Virus record (IMG/VR): IMGVR_UViG_3300033233_000009
Span: 1-64,000 of that record
Direction: 5' to 3' (one strand)
Length of the DNA: 64,000 nt
Source of the DNA: a virus
The stretch's first letter is position 1. Each line of letters begins with the position of its first letter. A model generated the notes under the pieces. That model did not search any database and was not told the DNA's origin. It saw nothing but the letters and a program-made list of their open reading frames with translations. This document shows, piece after piece, positions 3,603-64,000 of the stretch. The translations under genes were made by a program, and so were the position numbers.

Positions 3603-3720
3603 CGTGTCGTCTCCCGTTCGGTGAGTGGGGTTTTCGTGCGGCCGAGGCTCGCACCCTGACGCGGCACCCGAGGGGGGACCAGTGCAGCACAGGGTGCGAG
3701 GCTCCGCCGCGCGATTCGGT

Positions 3721-3978
3721 TCAGCGCAGGTGGACTCCCCCGAGCCCCGCGTCGGGCTCCGCTTGCACCATCACGACCGGCGGCCGGCGCTTGCCACGCA
3801 TCTGCGGACCGCGCAGGCGCAGCGCCTCCGCCTGCAACACGGCCGCGGCCTTCCCTCGGCCCGCGTTCGCCTCGCTCGTCGCGCGCTCGTCCAGGCGATC
3901 GGCCTGTCTGCACCGCGCGCAGCTCGCGCCGAACCCTCGGTGGCCGCACTTCGGAAATCTCGCTCGGGTCGCTGGCAT
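3721..3978 (-). CDS. Small Zn-finger protein
   Basis: CGH and CARC motifs; coupled to the upstream stop. Confidence 0.5.
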   Translation of the reverse strand: MPATRARFPKCGHRGFGASCARCRQADRLDERATSEANAGRGKAAAVLQAEALRLRGPQMRGKRRPPVVMVQAEPDAGLGGVHLR

Positions 3979-4331
3979 CAGTCGGTCTCTCCTCCGAACT
4001 CAGCGTCCGGGTCAGCATCGTCGTCCGCATCCGGGTCGCTGTCCATCGCGACCTTGACCCACTCGGTCGTGTGGGCGTCTTCCTCCAGGATTTCCACCGC
4101 GCGCTCCACGTCCGCATCGAACGCTGCGGGGAACTGCGCCAGGAGCACGTCCGCCGCGTCGTAGGGCGCGCTCGCGTCGAGGTACAGGTAGCCGCCCTCC
4201 GCACTCTCGTACGGCGTGTTCTCGGCCGGCGACTCGTAGTGCGCCCGGAACCAGCCGACCATCACCCGCACGGGCTCCTCCTCGGCACTCAGGTCGTGCC
4301 CGTCGAGGTCGGGGTCGGAGGCGTTGCTCAT
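3978..4331 (-). CDS. Acidic protein resembling a HEPN/RES-associated N-terminal domain
   Basis: MVGWFRAHYESPAENTPYESAEGGYLY..PYDAADVL motif and a D/E-rich tail. A TTGACG-16-TAGCGT promoter lies upstream on the minus strand. Confidence 0.55.
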   Translation of the reverse strand: MSNASDPDLDGHDLSAEEEPVRVMVGWFRAHYESPAENTPYESAEGGYLYLDASAPYDAADVLLAQFPAAFDADVERAVEILEEDAHTTEWVKVAMDSDPDADDDADPDAEFGGETD

Positions 4332-4487
4332 CGGTGGCTGCGACGCTACCATCGCTGCCGGAGGCGTCAAGCGGCTTTTCATTGGCGCAGGGCCCGCAGC
4401 CGAATTGCCGCGCCGTCGCGCGCGGTGTGACATATCCGGTCCGCGCTGTCCTTGCTTCGGTGCGCGAGCGGGAGCATACCGACGACC

Positions 4488-5480
4488 ATGCGCAACGCTG
4501 CATACGAGACGCTCGTGTCCGCCGACGCCAGCCGCGAAGCCTGGCTGCAAGCTCGTGCCGGGCTGATCACCGCCTCCGACGTGCCGGTCATCCTCGGCAT
4601 CGTGCCGGGCAAGCCCGCGCTCTGGTACGAGAAGGTCGGGATGCTGGAGCGGAAGCCGCCCGCCGAGCCGGAGGTGCTTCAGATGGGACACGACTCCGAG
4701 CCGTTCAACGCCGAGCAGTACGTCGCCAAGACCGGCCGCAAGGTGAAGCGCTGCCAGGAGCTGCTGCGCAGCAAGCGGTACCCGTGGCTCGGCGCCACGC
4801 TCGACTACTGGACCTGGATCCCGGGTGACAAGCAGCCCGGTCCCCTGGAGCTGAAGGTGACTGGCAACAAGGATCTCTGGCCCGAGGACGGCGCGCCCGC
4901 CATGAAGTTCCAGGCGCAGCTCCAGACGCAGATGCTCGTGACGGGCAGCACGTGGGGCTCCCTCTCCGCCCTCATCGGCAGCCCCTACCTGCACCATCGC
5001 TGGCTCGACTTCGAGCGCGACGACCCGGGGCTGTGCGATCTGATCCTGACCGAGACGCACGCCTTCGCCGAGTCGGTGCAGTCCGGCGTGAACCCGCCGG
5101 TGGACGGCGACGAGAGCACGAGCGACGCGCTTCGCAACCTCGTCGTCGAGGTGCTCGCCGGCACGACGGTCGTGCTCCCCGCCGACGCGGTCGAGTGGGA
5201 TCGGGAGCTGCAAGCCGCGAAGGAAGCGATCAAGACCTGGCAGGAGCGCCAGCGGTTCTACGAGAACTTGCTGATGACCGCGATCGGCGACCACGAGACG
5301 GGGGAGCTTCCGGGCGAGGCGGGGCGCTTCACGTTCAAGCGGCAGACGCGCAAGGCGTACTCCGTCGCCGAGACGAGCTTCCGCAAGCTCCACCGCGTCG
5401 CACCGAAGAAGCCGCGTGCGCCCACGGGCCCGAGTGGCCCGACGTTCGCCGACGCTACCGAAGATCCCCCGTCACCATGA
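4488..5480 (+). CDS. YqaJ-like viral recombinase / lambda-type exonuclease
   Basis: REAWLQARAGLITASDVPVILG, GHDSEP, YPWLGATLD, LELK and Q.Q.QM.VTG motifs; adjacent to recT. Confidence 0.9.
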   Translation: MRNAAYETLVSADASREAWLQARAGLITASDVPVILGIVPGKPALWYEKVGMLERKPPAEPEVLQMGHDSEPFNAEQYVAKTGRKVKRCQELLRSKRYPWLGATLDYWTWIPGDKQPGPLELKVTGNKDLWPEDGAPAMKFQAQLQTQMLVTGSTWGSLSALIGSPYLHHRWLDFERDDPGLCDLILTETHAFAESVQSGVNPPVDGDESTSDALRNLVVEVLAGTTVVLPADAVEWDRELQAAKEAIKTWQERQRFYENLLMTAIGDHETGELPGEAGRFTFKRQTRKAYSVAETSFRKLHRVAPKKPRAPTGPSGPTFADATEDPPSP

Positions 5481-6996: not shown

Positions 6997-8931
6997 ATGG
7001 CCGCCGACTCAGAGAGACTTCGTCCAGGCTCCAAACAGGTCTACCTCACCTTGCAGAGAAGGCTTCTGGCTGGTGACCAGATACACGCCTTCGTGCTGCC
7101 ATGCCGCTACGGCAAGAGTGACCTCCAGCGCTTCTGCGCCATCGCCCTGCACGAGCAGGGCCTCATCGCGACGACGCTCTCCCTGACGCCGTCGAAGTTC
7201 CTGGCGCAGCAGCTTGTCAATCAGGATCACATCGCCGCGGCGCAGCGCCGCTACTCGCTCGGGGCCTTCCGGTTCGCCAACCTCGTGAAGATGCCGGAGT
7301 ACCTGAACCCGAACGGGGAAGTCTTCATGGCGATGACGAATCAGCTTGCGCTTGCGCAGGCAGCCGTCCTCGTGCAGTGGCTAGAAGCGGTACGGCACCA
7401 GACCGGTAAGCCAGTGCTCGTGTTCGTGGACGAGTGCCACACGGTGTCGGAGGAGAAGGCATGGGGTGGACTGATCCAGGCCATACGCGACGCTGGCGCC
7501 ATCATCGTCCTGCTCACCGCGACCGCCCACCGCGCGGACGGACGCAAGATTCCCGGTTTCTCCTACGACGAGGTCGGTCGCTCTGTGACCCAGGAGCGGC
7601 AATGGAAGCCGCACCCCACGGAGCTGGACAAGGCCATCATCGAGCTACGTGAGGTCGAGCGACTACAAGTCGTCCTCCGGGCTGACCACGAGGTCCCGTT
7701 CTCGCAGGCGTGGCATGAGCGCGTCCTGTGCGGCGTGACGCACAGCCGCTTCGACTGCGCGCTGGAGATTATTCGCGGGAAGACACTCGTGAAGCGGCTG
7801 GTGGACCTGACCCCAGAGGAGGCTCGTGAGCACCTCGGGCGGATCGTTCGGCAGCCGGAGACGGTAGAGGCGGGGGTCATCCGAATGTTGCAAGTGCTGG
7901 CTTGGTACAAAAGCATGAACCCGCAGTGCGCCGCGATGGTCTACTGCGGCAACGACTCGGACAGCGACAGCGACATCAACAGGCACGCCAAGGCAATCGA
8001 GAGCGCGATCCGTCAGTTAGCTCCGTTCGCTTGCCGCACACAGATCGTCACCAGCGCGGATGGCACCGACGGTCCCGATCGGCTGCGTGACTTCTGCAAC
8101 GGGGCCAATGACGTGCTCATCGTCAAACAGATGGCGGGGGTGGGGCTCGACGCGCCACGGGTGAAGGTGGTGCTCGACCTGTCTCCCGTTCGGACGTATG
8201 CCTCTTGCGTCCAGCGCTGGCTCCGCGCGTGCACGCCGTTCGAGACCCCTGGCGCCACACCGATCCGGGCTGCGGTGCTGATTACGCCCGAGGACACTCT
8301 CGCGTGCAAGTTCTTCGATGTGCTGACCCGCGGGATGGTCGGCGCGGACACCGTTCGCATCGCGGGCGACACGATCGAGATTACCGTGGTCCCGCGCAAC
8401 GACGAGCCGGTCACGGTGACGCACGTGACCGCCAGTGACTTCAGTGACGGCGCGTTCCACGACCATGCGCTGCGGTCGGAGGAAGCCACCGAGCTTGGCA
8501 TGGTGAAGCAGATCGGGGACGAGTTTCCTGAGATTCTACGGGAGCGTACATGGCCACAGGTCGTGCAAAGCGTACGGCGACTTTCGGCCATCATCACCGG
8601 AACGGCAACCGCTCAGGAGTCCGCCCTGATAGCCCCAGCCGAGGACACGTCCAAGATGGTTTCGGAGAGGAAGCGCCTCATCAACAGCTACATGCGGAGG
8701 GTGCGTCGTCTGCACTTCGGGCGCTACAACCCCGACACTGTGGAGAAGGAAATGCAGCAGGTCTGGCGGCACCTCTACCGGCGGGCTCGTGTGCCTGGGA
8801 AGTTCGAGGAGCTGAACGACCTGACCATGCTGGACAAGCTCATCGAGACAGCCAGGGGGTTCTTGGTGGCTGACACGCACCCGGGTCTGGTGCTCGACGA
8901 CGAAGGCGCGATCGTCACGGACACCCGATGA
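6997..8931 (+). CDS. Superfamily 2 helicase-like protein (ResIII/DEAD-like)
   Basis: Motif I LPCRYGKS, motif II VFVDECH, motif III LTATAHR, motif V GLDAP, degenerate motif VI QRWLR. Confidence 0.8.
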   Translation: MAADSERLRPGSKQVYLTLQRRLLAGDQIHAFVLPCRYGKSDLQRFCAIALHEQGLIATTLSLTPSKFLAQQLVNQDHIAAAQRRYSLGAFRFANLVKMPEYLNPNGEVFMAMTNQLALAQAAVLVQWLEAVRHQTGKPVLVFVDECHTVSEEKAWGGLIQAIRDAGAIIVLLTATAHRADGRKIPGFSYDEVGRSVTQERQWKPHPTELDKAIIELREVERLQVVLRADHEVPFSQAWHERVLCGVTHSRFDCALEIIRGKTLVKRLVDLTPEEAREHLGRIVRQPETVEAGVIRMLQVLAWYKSMNPQCAAMVYCGNDSDSDSDINRHAKAIESAIRQLAPFACRTQIVTSADGTDGPDRLRDFCNGANDVLIVKQMAGVGLDAPRVKVVLDLSPVRTYASCVQRWLRACTPFETPGATPIRAAVLITPEDTLACKFFDVLTRGMVGADTVRIAGDTIEITVVPRNDEPVTVTHVTASDFSDGAFHDHALRSEEATELGMVKQIGDEFPEILRERTWPQVVQSVRRLSAIITGTATAQESALIAPAEDTSKMVSERKRLINSYMRRVRRLHFGRYNPDTVEKEMQQVWRHLYRRARVPGKFEELNDLTMLDKLIETARGFLVADTHPGLVLDDEGAIVTDTR

Positions 8932-9578
8932 CCCCCGAGCAGATCCGCGAGCAGAAGCGCCAGTACGGCGCCACGCGGCCCGACATGGTGCCCGCCGGCA
9001 GTGTCGGGTGGTGCTGGACCAAGCTGAACCTGCTCAGCATCTACTACAAGACGACGGCGTCGAGCTTCAGCGACATCCAGCAGCTCTGGGACGATCTGGT
9101 TGGGCACAAGGCGTGGCTCGTGATTCCCGACGGGGCGCCCTACGGCACCCCCGAGGCGATGCTCCGCGGCGAGTTAGGGATCACGCTGCCGAAGTTCCGT
9201 GAGGAGCTGTCGCGCCGGGAGCGGGTGCTCCAGTTGGCCCGGGACGAGGCGGTTACGGCGCTCGGGCCGGCCGTACCAGCGAAGGGTGGACCATCACGCA
9301 ATCCCAGTGGAAGAAGCAAGGGTAGCAATACTACCCTTGGTAAGGAGCGTGGCGCCGAGTACCTCGTCCGCCGTCTGAAGCGGGACGCCCCCGAGCACGC
9401 CGCCCGGCTCGCTGCCGGCGAGTACCGGAGCGCCAGGGCAGCGGCGCTCGCCGCGGGGATCGTGAGGCAGCGCTCGCGGGTCGAGCAAGCGCTTGCGCTC
9501 GTCGCGAAGATGACGCCCACGGAGTGGGATGATTTCCTGCGGCTCGCGCGTGCTTCGCGCGCGCCGCGACTCAAATGA
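8928..9578 (+). CDS. Hypothetical protein coupled to the helicase
   Basis: ATGA overlap; basic C-terminal region GAEYLVRRLKRDAPE...SARAAALAAGI. Confidence 0.7.
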   Translation: MTPEQIREQKRQYGATRPDMVPAGSVGWCWTKLNLLSIYYKTTASSFSDIQQLWDDLVGHKAWLVIPDGAPYGTPEAMLRGELGITLPKFREELSRRERVLQLARDEAVTALGPAVPAKGGPSRNPSGRSKGSNTTLGKERGAEYLVRRLKRDAPEHAARLAAGEYRSARAAALAAGIVRQRSRVEQALALVAKMTPTEWDDFLRLARASRAPRLK

Positions 9579-10099: not shown

Positions 10100-10969
10100 A
10101 TGGCTTGGCTCATCGATCCGCGCATGTGGGACGACCCGTGGTACCGGGGCCTTCCGAGCGACGCGCGCGAGCTGTTCAAGTTCGTCCTGTTCGGGAACGT
10201 CCGAACGTCCATCCCGGGGCTGGCCAAGGGGGTGAGCGTCGTGGCGCTCTCCGACGCGGTGGCGTTCACGGTCGAGCAGACCGAGGCGGCCCTGAACCGG
10301 GCGCTCATGCCCGACCACGAGGGCAAGGCGCACATGCTGTTCGACGCGGTCGCCCGGGTCATCCGGGTCCCGAACGCCCCGAAGTACAACAAGTGCACGA
10401 ACCCGAACCAGCTCGTCGGGTGGTTCCGGGCCTGGCGGGACGTGCCCGACTGCGGGCTCAAGGTCGCCCACCTGGAGACCGTGCCGGCCGGGGTGAACCT
10501 AGCCAACGCCGAGATGCTCCGGGCCTGGAACCGGACCTTCGGCCCGGTCATCGCGGCCAGGCAGAACGGGGTACACCTGCACACCTACGCGGACCTCGAC
10601 TCACCGAGGGGACAGCAGCAGCTTTCGTTGGAAGCCTTGCCAAAGGCTTCCGAAAGCCTTTCCCCCTCTGAATGGGAAATGGGATCGGGATCGGGATCTG
10701 GATCTAAGGCTTTGGCAAGCCTTACCGAAGCCTCTCCGACGATCATAAAATCCTCCCCAGAGGGAAATCTTACAGCTCAGAGAGAAACAGGAGGCGAGCA
10801 TGGAGCGAGTGGGCATGGTGGCGGGTCTGGACGCGGAGGTACTCCTGACGGGTCGGGAAGCCGACCGGGAGGGGCTCCGAACGGCAGCGCGGGCGGCCGG
10901 GGGCCCGGAGTCACTCCTGCGGGAGCGGCACCCCCTGCTCGCCGCCGGCTGCCCCGCGGGCTGGACTGA
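10100..10969 (+). CDS. Phage replication initiator (replisome organiser-like)
   Basis: N-terminal IDPRMWDDPWYRGLPSDARELF typical of phage initiators; internal iteron-like repeats; lies upstream of DnaC/DnaB. Confidence 0.7.
   Translation: MAWLIDPRMWDDPWYRGLPSDARELFKFVLFGNVRTSIPGLAKGVSVVALSDAVAFTVEQTEAALNRALMPDHEGKAHMLFDAVARVIRVPNAPKYNKCTNPNQLVGWFRAWRDVPDCGLKVAHLETVPAGVNLANAEMLRAWNRTFGPVIAARQNGVHLHTYADLDSPRGQQQLSLEALPKASESLSPSEWEMGSGSGSGSKALASLTEASPTIIKSSPEGNLTAQRETGGEHGASGHGGGSGRGGTPDGSGSRPGGAPNGSAGGRGPGVTPAGAAPPARRRLPRGLD
10620..10790. repeat. Iteron-like repeats, candidate replication origin
   Basis: Several AAGCCT/AGGCTT copies, (GGGATC)x3, the inverted pair CTTGCCAAAG / CTTTGGCAAG, and a locally AT-richer tract inside the initiator gene. 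Confidence 0.55.
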
Positions 10970-11699
10970 ACCGGCGCTCGTGGCCGAGACGGCGGGCTGG
11001 TACGCCGACTCCGAGGCGCGGCTCGCCCTGTGCGCCGTCTGCCCCCCGGCAGGGGGCGCCTGCGACCGGGCGACCTCGCTGCTCCGCCCCGGCCAGCTTC
11101 CGGTGTGGCAGGGGGACCGCGTCGTGGCCGGGCGCTGCGAGCGGTACCGCGAGTGGCGGCTCTGCCAGCGGCTCGCGGTGAGCGACGTGCCGGAGCGGTA
11201 CCGCGGCGCGCGGCTGAGCGCGTTTCGGACCGACACCCCGGCGCAGCAGGAAGCGTTCGACGCGATCGGTGGGTTCTTCGAGGCGCTCCAGGGAACCGGC
11301 GAGCCGTGGCTCGTGCTCTCCGGTCCGCACGCGAGCGGCAAGACGCACCTCGCGTGCGGGATGCTGCGCGGCCTGCCGCGGACGATGCCGCGTAAGCGCT
11401 TCTGGTACTCCGACCTGAACGAGCTACGGGTCGCGATGAAGGGCTACAAGTTCGACTCGGACGACGAGGACCCGACCGAGCGCTTGCGCACGACCGACGT
11501 GCTCGTGCTCGACAACCTCGACACCGGCAAGCTCGCGAAAGAGGCGTGGCTGAAGGAGCGCGTCGAGGACGTGCTCTACCAGCGATGGAACCGGCAGCGC
11601 GCGACGTTGATCACGACGCACGGGACGCTTGCGGACCTCGTCGCCGCGTTCACGACGATCACCACCCTGAGCGAGGCGCCGTCATGCAGCCTGGCGTGA
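10800..11699 (+). CDS. DnaC/IstB-like AAA+ helicase loader
   Basis: VPERYRGARL, Walker A GPHASGKTHLA, Walker B VLVLDNL, RWN..RATLITT; GGAGG RBS. Confidence 0.85.
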   Translation: MERVGMVAGLDAEVLLTGREADREGLRTAARAAGGPESLLRERHPLLAAGCPAGWTEPALVAETAGWYADSEARLALCAVCPPAGGACDRATSLLRPGQLPVWQGDRVVAGRCERYREWRLCQRLAVSDVPERYRGARLSAFRTDTPAQQEAFDAIGGFFEALQGTGEPWLVLSGPHASGKTHLACGMLRGLPRTMPRKRFWYSDLNELRVAMKGYKFDSDDEDPTERLRTTDVLVLDNLDTGKLAKEAWLKERVEDVLYQRWNRQRATLITTHGTLADLVAAFTTITTLSEAPSCSLA

Positions 11700-48938: not shown

Positions 48939-49009
48939 CGCTCCCGAGCGGGGGCAGGTCTGATGCGTACGGCGCGCTCCGCCGGTACTCCCTTGTGGAG
49001 GTAGCTACG

Positions 49010-49972
49010 ATGAATCCCATGCTTCAGCAGTTGATGGACAGCGCGGGCCTCGCGATCAAGCAGTCGCGTGACGCGCTGGCGGCCTCGCAGCAGATCGGCA
49101 ATCAGGTCAGCGGGGTGCGCCAGGAAATGGCGCGGCTCGCGCAGAACGCAGCCGATCTCCAGTCGGCGATCGGTCGCTTGCAGGTACAGCGGGCGAACGG
49201 CGACCCGGGCATCCAGCGGGTCGAGAACATCCCCGGGCGGCGGGTGCCGTTCGACCTGTTCGTGGACATCCCCATCGGGGACAACGTGACGAGCGTCCAG
49301 CAGGGCACGATCACGATCAGCCAGGAGGGGCCGTTCGTGGCCGTCTCCCGGATGGCGGTCTTCCTCTCGACCTACCAGTTCCAGGTGGTCACGGACCCGA
49401 ACCAGCCGAACAGCAAGGCGACGTTCGCCGGGCGGAGCTTCGGAAGGCAGCGGCCGATCCACAGCGTGTGGGACCTGAACGACGGGCTGCCGCGCACGCA
49501 GGTCGTGATGGCCGTCGCGATGCCGGGCACGGGCGCCCCGCAGGTGATCAGCCCGTCGAACGCGAGCCCGTTCCGCACGATGGAGGCGGACTACCGGATC
49601 CGGTTCGAGAACGCGGGGTCGAGCTTCCCGCGGTCGAACATCGAAATCCCGAGCGCGTTCTGGACGCGGGGGATGAACGATCCGTTCGAGCTGGCGGCGC
49701 TCGACGTGTTCGAGCGGGGCGAGGTGATGACCTTCCAGGTGCTCCCGCTCCACCCGAACAACCCGCCCTTCGGCAACGTCGCCGGCTTCGGCGCTCCGAA
49801 CCCGGCCTACCCGTTCGTGCAGAGCGGCTGGGATGCGGTGGAAGGCGTCGTGGACGCGAACAACCCCGCTGCCGGCACCACCGATCCGGTGACGCGCGTG
49901 GCGAGCGGCATCCTCACGATCGGCTTCCACGGCTACCGGATCGTCCAGCCTGCGGGCGCGGGCCCGTACTGA
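49010..49972 (+). CDS. Candidate second capsid protein (N-terminal coiled coil plus beta-rich domain)
   Basis: GGAGG RBS; GTITISQEGPFVAV, LDVFERGEVMTFQV, LTIGFHGYRI strands. Confidence 0.55.
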   Translation: MNPMLQQLMDSAGLAIKQSRDALAASQQIGNQVSGVRQEMARLAQNAADLQSAIGRLQVQRANGDPGIQRVENIPGRRVPFDLFVDIPIGDNVTSVQQGTITISQEGPFVAVSRMAVFLSTYQFQVVTDPNQPNSKATFAGRSFGRQRPIHSVWDLNDGLPRTQVVMAVAMPGTGAPQVISPSNASPFRTMEADYRIRFENAGSSFPRSNIEIPSAFWTRGMNDPFELAALDVFERGEVMTFQVLPLHPNNPPFGNVAGFGAPNPAYPFVQSGWDAVEGVVDANNPAAGTTDPVTRVASGILTIGFHGYRIVQPAGAGPY

Positions 49973-53955: not shown

Positions 53956-54360
53956 ATGTCGCTCAATCAGATGGCGTACCAGTCCGGCGTGCTCGGGGCC
54001 CTGCCCCCGGCTCCCGCCTTCCGCTCGGGCTCGCTCGGCGTGCTCGGCTTCGTGCCGCCGGTGTCCGGTGCGGTGCGCTCGGGCTCGCTCGGCATCCTGG
54101 GGGCGCCCCCACCGAGCGGCGCCGTGAAGTCCGGCGTGCTCGGCACGCTCGGTGGCGGCCCGCCTCCCTCCGGTGCGGTGCGCTCCGGCTCGCTCGGTGT
54201 ACTCGGCGAGTACTTCGCGCAGAACGGCCTCGGTGCCGATGCGGTCGTGATGCCCACCGCGGTGGGGCCGAAGCCCGCCATGGCGACCCTCACCATGGCC
54301 ATCGCTGGCCTGGGCGCGGTCGCCGCGATCTGGTGGGCCATGACCCGCCGGCACGCCTGA
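53956..54360 (+). CDS. Tail-anchored repeat protein
   Basis: Repeated SG(S/V)LG.LG..PP.SGAV; GEYFAQNGLGA; TM. Confidence 0.75.
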   Translation: MSLNQMAYQSGVLGALPPAPAFRSGSLGVLGFVPPVSGAVRSGSLGILGAPPPSGAVKSGVLGTLGGGPPPSGAVRSGSLGVLGEYFAQNGLGADAVVMPTAVGPKPAMATLTMAIAGLGAVAAIWWAMTRRHA

Positions 54361-61502: not shown

Positions 61503-61738
61503 TTGCGCGCAAGCGCAAGAAGGCGCCGCGAGCGCGCCTCGTGGTGAAGACGCCGGTGCGGTTCCGGGTGCACGCGATCATCAGCGAGAAGGTCGAGCAG
61601 GGTGTGCGCTACGGGTACAGCCGCGCGCACAAGCACACGAACACGCCGAACGCGGAGGCGTTCACCGAAGCCATCGAGCAGGCCGTCATGGACGCGCTGT
61701 CGGAGGTGATCGACTTCGAGCCGGAGTTCGACGAGTGA
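61499..61738 (+). CDS. Hypothetical protein
   Basis: GTGA overlap; VEQGVRYGYSRAHKHT. Confidence 0.65.
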   Translation: MIARKRKKAPRARLVVKTPVRFRVHAIISEKVEQGVRYGYSRAHKHTNTPNAEAFTEAIEQAVMDALSEVIDFEPEFDE

Positions 61739-61797
61739 AGACATCCGCGCGGCAGGCCCTTGCGTGCCCACCGAGCAGGTGTTATAGCGTCTGTACG

Positions 61798-62004
61798 ATG
61801 AAACAACGGTGGACGGCCGCGCGCGTACAGGCGGCCCGGAAGCGCCTGGCGCTGACGCAGGAGCAGTTTGCAGGGCTGCTCGGGGTCACGTTCGCGACGG
61901 TCAATCGCTGGGAAGCCGGCCACTCCTCGCCGAGGGGGCTGTCCGTGCGGGCGCTGGATGCGCTGGCGATGCCGGGCGACGCCGGCAGCGGGAAGGGGCG
62001 GTAG
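61798..62004 (+). CDS. Cro/CI (XRE) HTH regulator
   Basis: RKRLALTQEQFAGLLGVTFATVNRWEAG..P. Confidence 0.9.
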   Translation: MKQRWTAARVQAARKRLALTQEQFAGLLGVTFATVNRWEAGHSSPRGLSVRALDALAMPGDAGSGKGR

Positions 62005-62442: not shown

Positions 62443-62720
62443 GCGTCACGACGATCACTGGGCTGTTGCTCGCTGCCGCGTGGGGTTGGTTGGGCTACCG
62501 CCACGGGCGACGGAGCGGCATCCGGGCCGAGCGGCTGCGCGTGCTCTACGGCATGGACGTCGCCTTGAACCTCCTGTCGAGCCCGGCGCTCCACTACCTG
62601 AACGGCTGGATTCGCGGGGACATCGACGAGGACTATCTCCGCGCCGGGGTCCGCGACTACGCGAAGCGGAAGCAGGAGAAGCACGAGGCGGAGCGCAAGC
62701 AGTGGAGGGGGCCACTATGA
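62439..62720 (+). CDS. Small protein with an N-terminal TM
   Basis: ATGA coupling; MSVTTITGLLLAAAWGWLGY. Confidence 0.6.
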   Translation: MSVTTITGLLLAAAWGWLGYRHGRRSGIRAERLRVLYGMDVALNLLSSPALHYLNGWIRGDIDEDYLRAGVRDYAKRKQEKHEAERKQWRGPL

Positions 62721-63112
62721 GCCCGACTGCTGCCGCTGAGGCCGCGGAGCTACGCGCCGCCGAGCTAGCGCTCGGGAACCTGCCCGAGCGAGCGCTCACG
62801 CTGCTGTACCGCTCGCTCGTGCAGAACCGCCACCTGAGCCCGCTGGAGCACCCGGCCCGGCCGATGACCGAGTGGGAGCTGGACGCCTTCCGTCAGGTCG
62901 AGGCGGAGTTCTTCACGCCGGACGGCACGCGCACGCTGCGCGTTGCCCCGGCCTTCGTGGACGCGGTGAACGCCGGGAACGTCCCTGTGCGACTGACGGG
63001 CACGCCTCGGGATGTCTACTACTGCGGAAATTACAACGGCTGGGTCCAGCTACGGAAGCTGATCCCCGGCGAAGCGGTGTACGTGGACACGGAAAGAAAG
63101 GATCGAACATGA
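62717..63112 (+). CDS. Hypothetical protein
   Basis: ATGA coupling at both ends. Confidence 0.6.
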   Translation: MSPTAAAEAAELRAAELALGNLPERALTLLYRSLVQNRHLSPLEHPARPMTEWELDAFRQVEAEFFTPDGTRTLRVAPAFVDAVNAGNVPVRLTGTPRDVYYCGNYNGWVQLRKLIPGEAVYVDTERKDRT

Positions 63113-64000
63113 AACGTCGAACGTCCCAAGCATTGGTCGGTATCTGGACTGGATTCGCACGGCCGCCCGTGGAGGGGGCCGCTCTGGTGCGGCGAGAGCT
63201 GGAGAAGGCGCACGACTACTACAACCAGATCGTGCAGTTGGAGCTGGACAGGCGGACCCTGTACCGCGCTGCGCGCGGGACGGTCGGGGAGACCCTCACC
63301 GCCCTCCAGGCGGAGATGGACGCGCTGAACGAGAAGATCACGGCGGAGGTCGGCGGCCTGCGCGCAGTGCGCCAGGCGGCGCGGACGCGCGTCGAGGATC
63401 CCGCGGCGAGTGCCAGGATCAAGGCGGTGAAGGAGGAGCGGCGGGCGCTCGCCGAGCGGCTCAAGGCGGCGCGCGCGGAGGCCGAGAAGGTCTACGGGCC
63501 GGGCAACGAGGAGCTGAGCCAGCGGAGCGCCCGTCTGGCGGAGGGGAACACGGCGTCGCGCATCCGGGAGAAGACGAACCGCGCGGCGCTGGAGGAAATG
63601 CTCACGGAGCCGGAGTGGGCTGACGAGTGGAAGATGGTCGCGCGGATCAATCACGACGCGAACGAGGTGAAGAAGCAGATCCGGGCCGCCTGTGGCCTCA
63701 CCCCCGGCACGTACCTGCTGGTCGAGAAAGCGGTCGAGGCTGCGTTCGCGCCGCCGCCGAAGGGGCGGCCGCCGCGGCCCGACCCGCGCCCGAAGGAGCG
63801 GTTCATCGGCGAGGGGCGCCTCGGTGTGCAGGTGCACCGGCTGCCGGTGGCAGACCTGCTGGCGGGTCGCAACGGGCAGATCGCCCTGCGCATGAGCGAC
63901 CGGCTCCCGAACGGAGCGAAGGCGGCGCAGCGGTACGGCACGCTGCGCATGCGGGTCACCACCGACGGTCAGTACGCCGAGTTCCCGGTGAAGCTCCACC
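63109..64000 (+). CDS. Partial Cas12m-like / TnpB-derived RNA-guided effector (N-terminal 297 aa)
   Basis: Manual translation, open to the window end: PPVEGAALVRRELEKAHDYYNQIVQLE, a long coiled coil, RAACGLTPGTYLLVE, RFIGEGRLGVQ, GTLRMRVTTDGQYAEFPVKLH; AAGGA RBS and ATGA overlap. Confidence 0.7.
   Translation, partial: MKRRTSQALVGIWTGFARPPVEGAALVRRELEKAHDYYNQIVQLELDRRTLYRAARGTVGETLTALQAEMDALNEKITAEVGGLRAVRQAARTRVEDPAASARIKAVKEERRALAERLKAARAEAEKVYGPGNEELSQRSARLAEGNTASRIREKTNRAALEEMLTEPEWADEWKMVARINHDANEVKKQIRAACGLTPGTYLLVEKAVEAAFAPPPKGRPPRPDPRPKERFIGEGRLGVQVHRLPVADLLAGRNGQIALRMSDRLPNGAKAAQRYGTLRMRVTTDGQYAEFPVKLH

Follow-up and report, generated by a model that had tools for sequence, protein, structure and literature searches.

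Cas12m, the effector of CRISPR–Cas subtype V-M, is a natural "dead" CRISPR effector and is in use for base and epigenome editing. Viruses are known to carry CRISPR components as well. For example, the archaeal portogloboviruses SPV1 and SPV2 have mini-CRISPR arrays without adaptation genes, whose spacers match close relatives and are used in inter-virus conflict, although these arrays come without their own effector and rely on the host system. Here we describe an element that, unlike SPV1 and SPV2, carries its own effector: a cas12m gene followed by a CRISPR array in the IMG/VR virus record IMGVR_UViG_3300033233_000009. The window, that is, the whole stretch of DNA analysed, comprises bases 1–64,000 of a single contig (G000:C1) of 124,597 bp with 69.7% G+C; coordinates above 64,000 follow the contig numbering, which is continuous with that of the window. 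The locus is a complete subtype V-M CRISPR–Cas system, with an effector and a 22-spacer array and without adaptation genes. It lies on a large, integrase-bearing, virus-classed element of a high-G+C host, and we hold with moderate confidence that it most likely serves the RNA-guided silencing of competing sibling elements.

Cas12m proteins bound DNA without cutting it whether their site was D-E-D, H-D-D, or N-D-D (PMC11013384), and Cas12m2 silences transcription from sites in the promoter and the 3′ untranslated region (PMC10442227). The published CRISPR RNA (crRNA) scaffold is a stem plus a pseudoknot (PMC10442227, PMC11013384), and the published protospacer-adjacent motifs (PAMs) are TTN (MmCas12m2, GoCas12m), YTN (PmCas12m), or T-/C-rich (PMC11013384, bioRxiv 10.64898/2026.03.26.714355, PMC10442227). 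The closest described system is MvCas12m of the myxophage MV-1, a 610-aa protein with a D-E-D site and 8 spacers, which its authors call the first in a bacteriophage, for which they found no protospacer, and for which they propose a role against competing elements (bioRxiv 10.64898/2026.09.14.751636). In a further source, Cas12m is mentioned only as a reference clade and an example (PMC12607003). Since a virus with Cas12m plus an array is already in the 2026 preprint on MvCas12m, the gain from the present locus is incremental.

Like MvCas12m, the effector described here is encoded on a virus-classed element beside a CRISPR array, lacks cas1, cas2, and cas4, has a D-E-D triad, and comes with no recognised trans-activating CRISPR RNA (tracrRNA). 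Against the described features of MvCas12m, it stands out by its length of 705 aa and its 22 spacers, by one perfect self-match and one match from a sibling's spacer, and by an additional orphan repeat and mini-array. The bacterial V-M proteins (MmCas12m2, 8hhl/8hio; GoCas12m, 8pm4; PmCas12m; 23vw) resemble it over nearly their full length and in the order of the fold, namely WED, helical REC, RuvC, and zinc-finger TNB. Their loci also share a single effector, a downstream array on the same strand, 36-nt repeats with a stem plus pseudoknot, no adaptation genes, and no tracrRNA-like anti-repeat nearby. The present protein is about 100 residues longer than the solved chains (577–614 aa), with extra helical REC residues (about 124–190, missing from shorter homologues) and a 63-residue disordered C-terminal tail. 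Its D-E-D triad contrasts with H-D-D in MmCas12m2 and N-D-D in PmCas12m (PMC11013384, bioRxiv 10.64898/2026.03.26.714355), and, unlike the bacterial proteins, it sits on a virus-classed element.

The cas12m frame opens with an ATG at 63109–63111 and is free of stops to base 63999, so that the window holds codons 1–297 (63109..64000, + strand). A sequence-only reading of the window had picked out this frame, called it Cas12m-like and TnpB-derived, and placed its RuvC domain and guide locus past the window end. Extended rightwards, the frame closes in the same contig, giving a gene (P0001) of 63109–65226 (+) and a protein of 705 aa. At 69.7% G+C, and with an antisense frame (63031–63999, 322 codons) that is likewise stop-free, an open frame is by itself little proof of coding. 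The case for coding rests instead on a third-position G+C of 0.85, on existing homologues, and on the pattern of codon changes: in the cas12m body, differences from the relative L012 number 141/112/246 at positions 1/2/3, and changes among five relatives are mostly at position 3. The gene is single-copy in the contig.

The protein was identified as Cas12m by a sequence search of the PDB and not by family profiles. With phmmer, the top match was the Cas12m chain 23vw_A (E 7.5e-37), with three stretches that together cover query residues 19–638, followed by Cas12m2 (E 1.7e-12) and UnCas12m4a (E 4.7e-9), whereas TnpB and Cas12f reached E values of about 0.01 or weaker. Profile searches with the full protein returned only sub-threshold TNB or TnpB matches in Pfam and NCBIfam: Pfam Cas12f1-like_TNB scored 22.8 bits against a cut-off of 26.3, and the NCBIfam TnpB matches (E 0.0015 and 0.15) were far under their cut-offs. 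An AlphaFold2 model built on 16 homologues had a mean predicted local distance difference test score of 80 and a predicted template modelling (TM) score of 0.60, with residues 643–705 disordered and helices at 24–212 forming a long helical region. When this model was compared with the PDB by Foldseek, the four best matches were all Cas12m (8hhl, 8pm4, 8hio, 8hhm; E 1.3e-24 to 4.4e-21), with TM-scores of 0.48–0.65 and root-mean-square deviations of 6.7–10.6 over 676–698 alignment columns. Cas12f and TnpB formed a second tier at E 4e-9 or weaker. Cas12m thus ranks first by both sequence and predicted fold.

The predicted RuvC residues, D348, E540, and D628, recur in 13 or 14 of the 16 aligned homologues, and four cysteines, C598, C601, C618, and C621, make up a CxxC...CxxC zinc finger. 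All of these lie within the 408 codons that follow the window, where the sequence-only reading had expected the RuvC domain; a RuvC-like domain does follow, and Cas12m similarity was found. The sequence motifs on which that reading was based, KAHDYYNQIVQLE, GLTPGTYLLV, RFIGEGRLGVQV, and LRMRVTTDGQYAEFPVKLH, are present in the translated frame, and the long coiled coil that it had listed corresponds to helices 24–212 of the model. On sequence homology and predicted structure, the frame in the window is therefore assigned as the 5′ part, 297 codons long, of the gene for a 705-aa Cas12m that is the effector of a subtype V-M system. Five close relatives on metagenome contigs (L011–L015) have cas12m genes 58–66% identical by tblastn, and among the nearest homologous proteins, P0006, P0009, and P0011 are encoded on contigs of 184,950, 97,405, and 133,938 bp.

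The array occupies 65230–66886 on the + strand, its first repeat beginning 4 nt past the cas12m stop, and consists of 23 identical 36-nt repeats (GTCGCCAAGGCAGCGCGGGGCCTTCGACGCCGCGAC) with 22 spacers of 35–42 nt. This is the guide locus that had been predicted to lie beyond the window. All five close relatives have a related array in the same position, with the 3′ part of the repeat conserved and its first 4–6 nt variable, and arrays also occur at more distant Cas12m loci, including two IMG/VR records (L005 and L006). A single structure was evaluated on 11 repeats drawn from 9 loci. In the stem (columns 14–18 with 30–34), 100% of cells were paired and compensatory changes were seen in 5/5 pairs; in the pseudoknot (columns 7–10 with 21–24), 75% of cells were paired, with two-sided changes in 3/4 pairs, while slid controls gave 33–38% paired. 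This covariation fits the stem-plus-pseudoknot crRNA scaffold of published Cas12m. No exact reverse-complement copy of the repeat was found in the contig, and a search with up to 6 mismatches returned only an opposite-strand mini-array 40 kb away.

Profile searches across the 124.6-kb contig detected no Cas1, Cas2, Cas4, or Y1 transposase (TnpA) family, with positive controls recovered in 9–10 of 14 known genomes. The absence of cas1, cas2, and tnpA, noted earlier for the window alone, thus holds for the contig and extends to cas4.

The disordered tail of the protein may have a second use. Over residues 641–705, codon changes are spread evenly over the three positions (22/16/22), with a few small conserved islands, a pattern that raises the possibility that the 3′ end of cas12m doubles as a leader for the array. 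The tail DNA (contig 65035–65226, residues 643–705; L001 9035–9226) also contains what looks like part of a repeat's start, GTCGCCAAGG, as well as, just 5′ of the first repeat, a GGGCCC...GGGCCC hairpin.

Arrays at more distant loci vary in layout. In L005, a 182-kb IMG/VR relative whose Cas12m is 32% identical, there is a 3-repeat array 3′ of the gene, and five reverse-complement repeat-like units with a spacing of only 46–50 nt lie upstream of it (array regions 8486–8706 and 11968–12157 of L005). In L009, an archaeal contig from a metagenome-assembled genome (MAG), arrays of Cas12m-type repeats flank a cas12m-like gene on both sides (1–1510 and 3678–4630), with at least 44 repeat copies in all, many of them degenerate.

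To find what the guides may recognise, we relied on matches of the element's own spacers and those of its relatives. Spacer 5 has a perfect match (36/36) in the contig itself, at 54153..54188 on the + strand, with a 5′ flank ending in GCTCGG and a 3′ flank beginning with CTCGCT. The site lies in a gene at 53956..54360 (+) for a 134-aa protein with internal SG.LG repeats, a hydrophobic C-terminal segment, and no Pfam family; a partial second match of 17 nt at 54064–54080 stems from the gene's internal repeat. A Logan contig of 11,116 nt from run X1, which may be the contig's own sample, reaches from the first repeat across cas12m to precisely the 54153–54188 site, where it stops. Because it spans both, spacer 5 and its protospacer are on one molecule, and the assembly breaks at the 36-mer they have in common. 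Coverage of the array itself by Logan contigs is scant. The 5′ flank of the self-protospacer is CGG and not T-rich, which makes the site PAM-less by the published yardstick, although those PAMs are of other orthologues and may not be those of this clade. By analogy with these orthologues, the self-match is probably tolerated and not acted on, as no T-rich PAM stands at the site. Most simply, it reflects sampling, at a PAM-less site, of the element's own DNA or of the DNA of a near-identical sibling. An IMG/VR search with a DnaJ-domain neighbour gene, which sought relatives of the self-target gene, found none. A single search of the Cas12m literature gave, among the papers listed, no description of self-matching spacers in a virus-borne Cas12m array, which is not proof of absence.

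The second match involves a sibling. Spacer 2 of L015 matches the contig at 11490..11527 on the − strand in 31/38 positions (30/32 in one block), and its spacer-sense 5′ flank ends in TTG. The site is inside a gene (10800–11699) for an IstB/DnaC-like ATPase (E 2e-4, under the Pfam cut-off). When 65 distinct spacers from this element and its relatives were scanned ungapped along the contig, only 2 matches reached at least 75% identity, compared with 1 for shuffled spacers; one shuffled spacer reached 29/38, against 31/38 for L015 spacer 2. The arrays themselves differ among siblings. Not one spacer is shared among L011, L014, L015, and this contig, and the array of L011 is degenerate and irregular. 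L012, L013, and L014 do have spacers in common, and L013 lacks only the cas12m-proximal spacer of L012 and L014, a difference in sequence that fits polarised spacer gain at the gene-proximal end.

By analogy with characterised Cas12m, the gene and the array would be transcribed in the + direction, and Cas12m would cut the transcript into crRNAs that consist of the 3′ part of a repeat plus a spacer. The crRNA complex would then bind PAM-flanked double-stranded DNA and block transcription or replication without cutting. We propose that its use would be in conflict between related elements, because the arrays differ between siblings, a spacer of L015 falls on a replication-loader gene beside TTG, and the element's own self-match lacks a T-rich PAM. 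If so, virus-borne versions of Cas12m show a natural use of such a silencer. What the locus adds is a long-form clade, with a D-E-D site and about 700 aa, and an array of 22 spacers that is unusually long for a virus. It also adds signs of spacer turnover between siblings despite the lack of adaptation genes, with one sibling match and one perfect self-match, and offers a concrete case for PAM-based discrimination of self from non-self in a non-cutting system. The sequence-only reading had suggested a regulator or anti-competitor system; of this, two leads have emerged, the PAM-less self-match and the L015 spacer match, and the function stays a proposal.

Several observations weigh against sibling silencing by a virus. 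The TTG flank comes from a single imperfect match, that of L015 spacer 2, whose first three PAM-proximal bases are mismatched. For 21 of the 22 own spacers, no target turned up in collections of phages and plasmids, in 401 Myxococcota genomes, or in two IMG/VR relatives (two spacers were also scanned exactly, over 24 nt, in IMG/VR). The contig is without adaptation genes, so spacer gain is unaccounted for, and the RuvC triad is intact, which leaves room for cutting. Finally, the families TerL_ATPase and Phage_capsid are absent from the whole contig, and among 49 open reading frames (ORFs) scanned, 30 of them with PHROGs, 29 with Pfam, and 10 of these with both databases, no capsid, portal, tail, or terminase family was found save one weak "head protein" line (E 8e-4).

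The spacer searches in question gave the following. Against phages, blastn with the array returned one 52-nt match at 83% identity (E 1e-3), and against plasmids one 73-nt match at 77% (E 3e-3), both of which we take as chance; against the IMG/VR relatives G001 and G002, matches were at E 0.09 or weaker only. Two Polyangiaceae MAGs yielded one 33-nt match, which overlaps a repeat. Among the 401 Myxococcota genomes, 20 had matches at E ≤ 1e-4, with no clean full-length spacer match among those listed; the listed matches are partial G+C-rich stretches of 30–88 nt at 74–97% identity, and the mapped ones cross a repeat–spacer junction. Exact scans of IMG/VR gave 0 matches each with the opening 24 nt of spacer 19, with those of spacer 21, and with a degenerate repeat pattern. 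When 19 kb of DNA surrounding the locus was compared by megablast with the collections of phages and plasmids, neither gave a match. The mapping of guides to targets thus yielded two matches, the spacer 5 self-match and the imperfect one of L015 spacer 2 on this contig, and none for the other 21 of its own spacers.

A first question is whether the carrier is a virus. The IMG/VR record is linear and about 69% complete by CheckV. The genes that point to a virus are those for RecT (phrog_148, E 9.5e-71), an M15 peptidase, an endolysin-type peptidoglycan (PG)-binding domain, and a DUF3310 protein. An otherwise unannotated ORF at 48995–49969 has as its nearest ESM Atlas clusters ones with 82–96% viral records, and two more distant Cas12m-plus-array loci are likewise on IMG/VR records. 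The carrier could instead be plasmid or host chromosomal DNA, or an integrative element, that was classed as viral, which would make the locus an ordinary cellular or plasmid V-M system; we regard this as a minority possibility that deserves to be taken seriously. In its favour are the missing terminase and capsid families and the fact that most of the larger scanned ORFs have no PHROG family and none has a convincing structural one. In particular, the 27 ORFs scanned between 26 and 60 kb had no structural PHROG or Pfam family and only M15 peptidase, PG-binding, and DnaJ domains. Furthermore, an integrase (phrog_1, E 9e-19), methyltransferases, a restriction-type helicase, and a MoxR-type ATPase, all encoded here, are also common on non-viral elements, and distant Cas12m relatives occur in bacterial and archaeal MAG contigs. 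A ComM/Mg-chelatase-type ATPase and ThyX are encoded as well, and ARAGORN found no tRNA genes. The structural genes may sit in the missing third of the element or be unrecognised, and we regard the carrier as likely a virus. The earlier description of the system as virus-borne therefore keeps the backing of the IMG/VR label, RecT, the integrase, and the endolysin-type matches, and lacks that of a capsid or terminase family; it stands as an inference.

A second question is whether this Cas12m cuts. The long-form D-E-D protein might act as a nuclease on competitor or host DNA, as most Cas12 enzymes do, given that D348, E540, and D628 are present and largely conserved, and the MvCas12m preprint suggests possible nuclease activity from the same triad (bioRxiv 10.64898/2026.09.14.751636). 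However, D-E-D orthologues of Cas12m have been tested and left double-stranded DNA uncut (PMC11013384). A perfect match in its own genome would also be risky for a cutter, if the PAM allowed it. We therefore consider a cutting enzyme rather unlikely, and continue with silencing without cutting as the preferred mode of action.

The self-match could also be functional. Under this explanation, the spacer 5 crRNA would guide Cas12m to repress the element's own gene at 53956–54360, for example to keep a virion or membrane protein silent in lysogeny or to time late expression. The gene with the 36/36 match belongs to an upstream co-directional module and shares its molecule with cas12m, its template strand is the one with which the crRNA would pair, and Cas12m2 can silence even when its target is within or beyond a transcription unit (PMC10442227). 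Yet the 5′ flank is CGG and not one of the published TTN, YTN, or T-/C-rich PAMs, only 1 of the 22 spacers is self-matching, and the site is mid-gene and not in a promoter. Consequently, self-regulation seems improbable next to the silencing of sibling elements.

The weakest alternative, a transposon-borne TnpB of the IS200/IS605 type with an omega RNA, has in its favour the weak NCBIfam TnpB matches and the TNB zinc-finger domain common to Cas12f and TnpB, but we dismiss it as next to impossible given a 23-repeat array after the gene, no Y1_Tnp match in the contig, no Rfam match in 9.5 kb, and a lead of Cas12m over TnpB of more than 30 orders of magnitude in E value. The protein does share with TnpB and Cas12f a core of RuvC plus a TNB zinc finger, with weak sequence and second-tier structural matches; it departs from them in its far larger REC region, in having no TnpA, and in being accompanied by a CRISPR array in place of an omega RNA.

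Beyond the array, the locus bears traces of rearrangement. A 4.6-kb segment at 66887–71521 (+), recognised from Pfam matches and synteny, holds a ThyX-like gene (ORF 68199–69764; Pfam Thy1, E 6.9e-14) and a DUF3310 gene (ORF 69888–71519; E 4.8e-12). It is followed at 71522–71557 (+; L001 15522–15557) by an orphan repeat with 5/36 mismatches, which lies 2 nt past the DUF3310 stop and right in front of a promoter-like TTGACA site. In the sibling L014, the array ends with a truncated repeat, and what stands directly after it, the promoter-like sequence and then the gene start, is the same as after the orphan repeat. In L012 and L013, a thyX homologue is upstream of cas12m (L012 5858–6785), as is DUF3310, whereas both are 3′ of the array here, and the last 36 aa of the ORF that precedes cas12m here (62717–63112) resemble the end of L012 thyX (tblastx, 50% over 36 aa). 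On the strength of the L014 layout, the shifted position of thyX and DUF3310, and this remnant of a thyX end, the orphan repeat is best read as the former terminal repeat of the array, split off when a rearrangement displaced either the thyX block or cas12m together with its array. A solitary decoy of the anti-CRISPR type was considered for the orphan repeat and rejected, as it aligns with the terminal repeat of the L014 array.

A degenerate mini-array of three repeat-like units lies in an intergenic region at 106172–106330 on the − strand (L003 11172–11330). Its intervening sequences, 36 nt and 16 nt, have no match elsewhere in the contig. The sequence after the orphan repeat likewise has no second match in the contig, and the sole match of either is the promoter-like sequence common with L014. 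L011 has a similar opposite-strand repeat copy upstream of cas12m, at about 8740–8932.

A Logan contig from run X1 joins L001 10949 to 15525 (contig 66949 to 71525), skipping 4,575 nt, with a side of 30 letters and a depth of 17.4. The joint starts 63 nt past the array and ends at the orphan repeat, and it could be an artefact of the repeats or stem from a variant that lacks the 4.6-kb segment. Several Logan joints, including this one, have short sides of 20–40 letters at repeats, and we leave them uninterpreted.

A more speculative picture would tie these features together. Spacer 5 might serve kin discrimination by silencing siblings that have the same membrane-protein gene with a PAM, sparing the CGG-flanked resident copy, or, given a G/C-rich PAM, the element's own guide might repress its own gene. 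In addition, the cas12m–array block would have moved as a unit and left its terminal repeat at the promoter of the next operon. We think this combination doubtful; if true, the block would be a mobile, self-contained silencing cassette.

Upstream, cas12m belongs to a co-directional string of genes. At its head is an XRE-family helix-turn-helix (HTH) gene at 61735..62004 (+; Pfam HTH_3, E 2.3e-9; HTH_31, E 3.4e-7), and its last member before cas12m is the 131-aa ORF at 62717..63112 (+), which has no Pfam family. The TGA of this ORF overlaps the ATG of cas12m in an ATGA, and an AAAGGA lies a few bases 5′ of that ATG. The upstream XRE regulator and the coupling to the preceding gene had both been recognised in the sequence-only reading. 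Rfam gave zero matches in 9.5 kb around cas12m, and a consensus scan found 0 promoter sites and 2 terminator-like sites, against 2.2 expected.

Toward the other end of the contig, an 841-aa DUF2201/VWA-like metallopeptidase protein (118508–121033, − strand; L004 13511–16033) is split by an intein with a LAGLIDADG domain. The gene for the MoxR-type ATPase (121795–123060) adjoins it.

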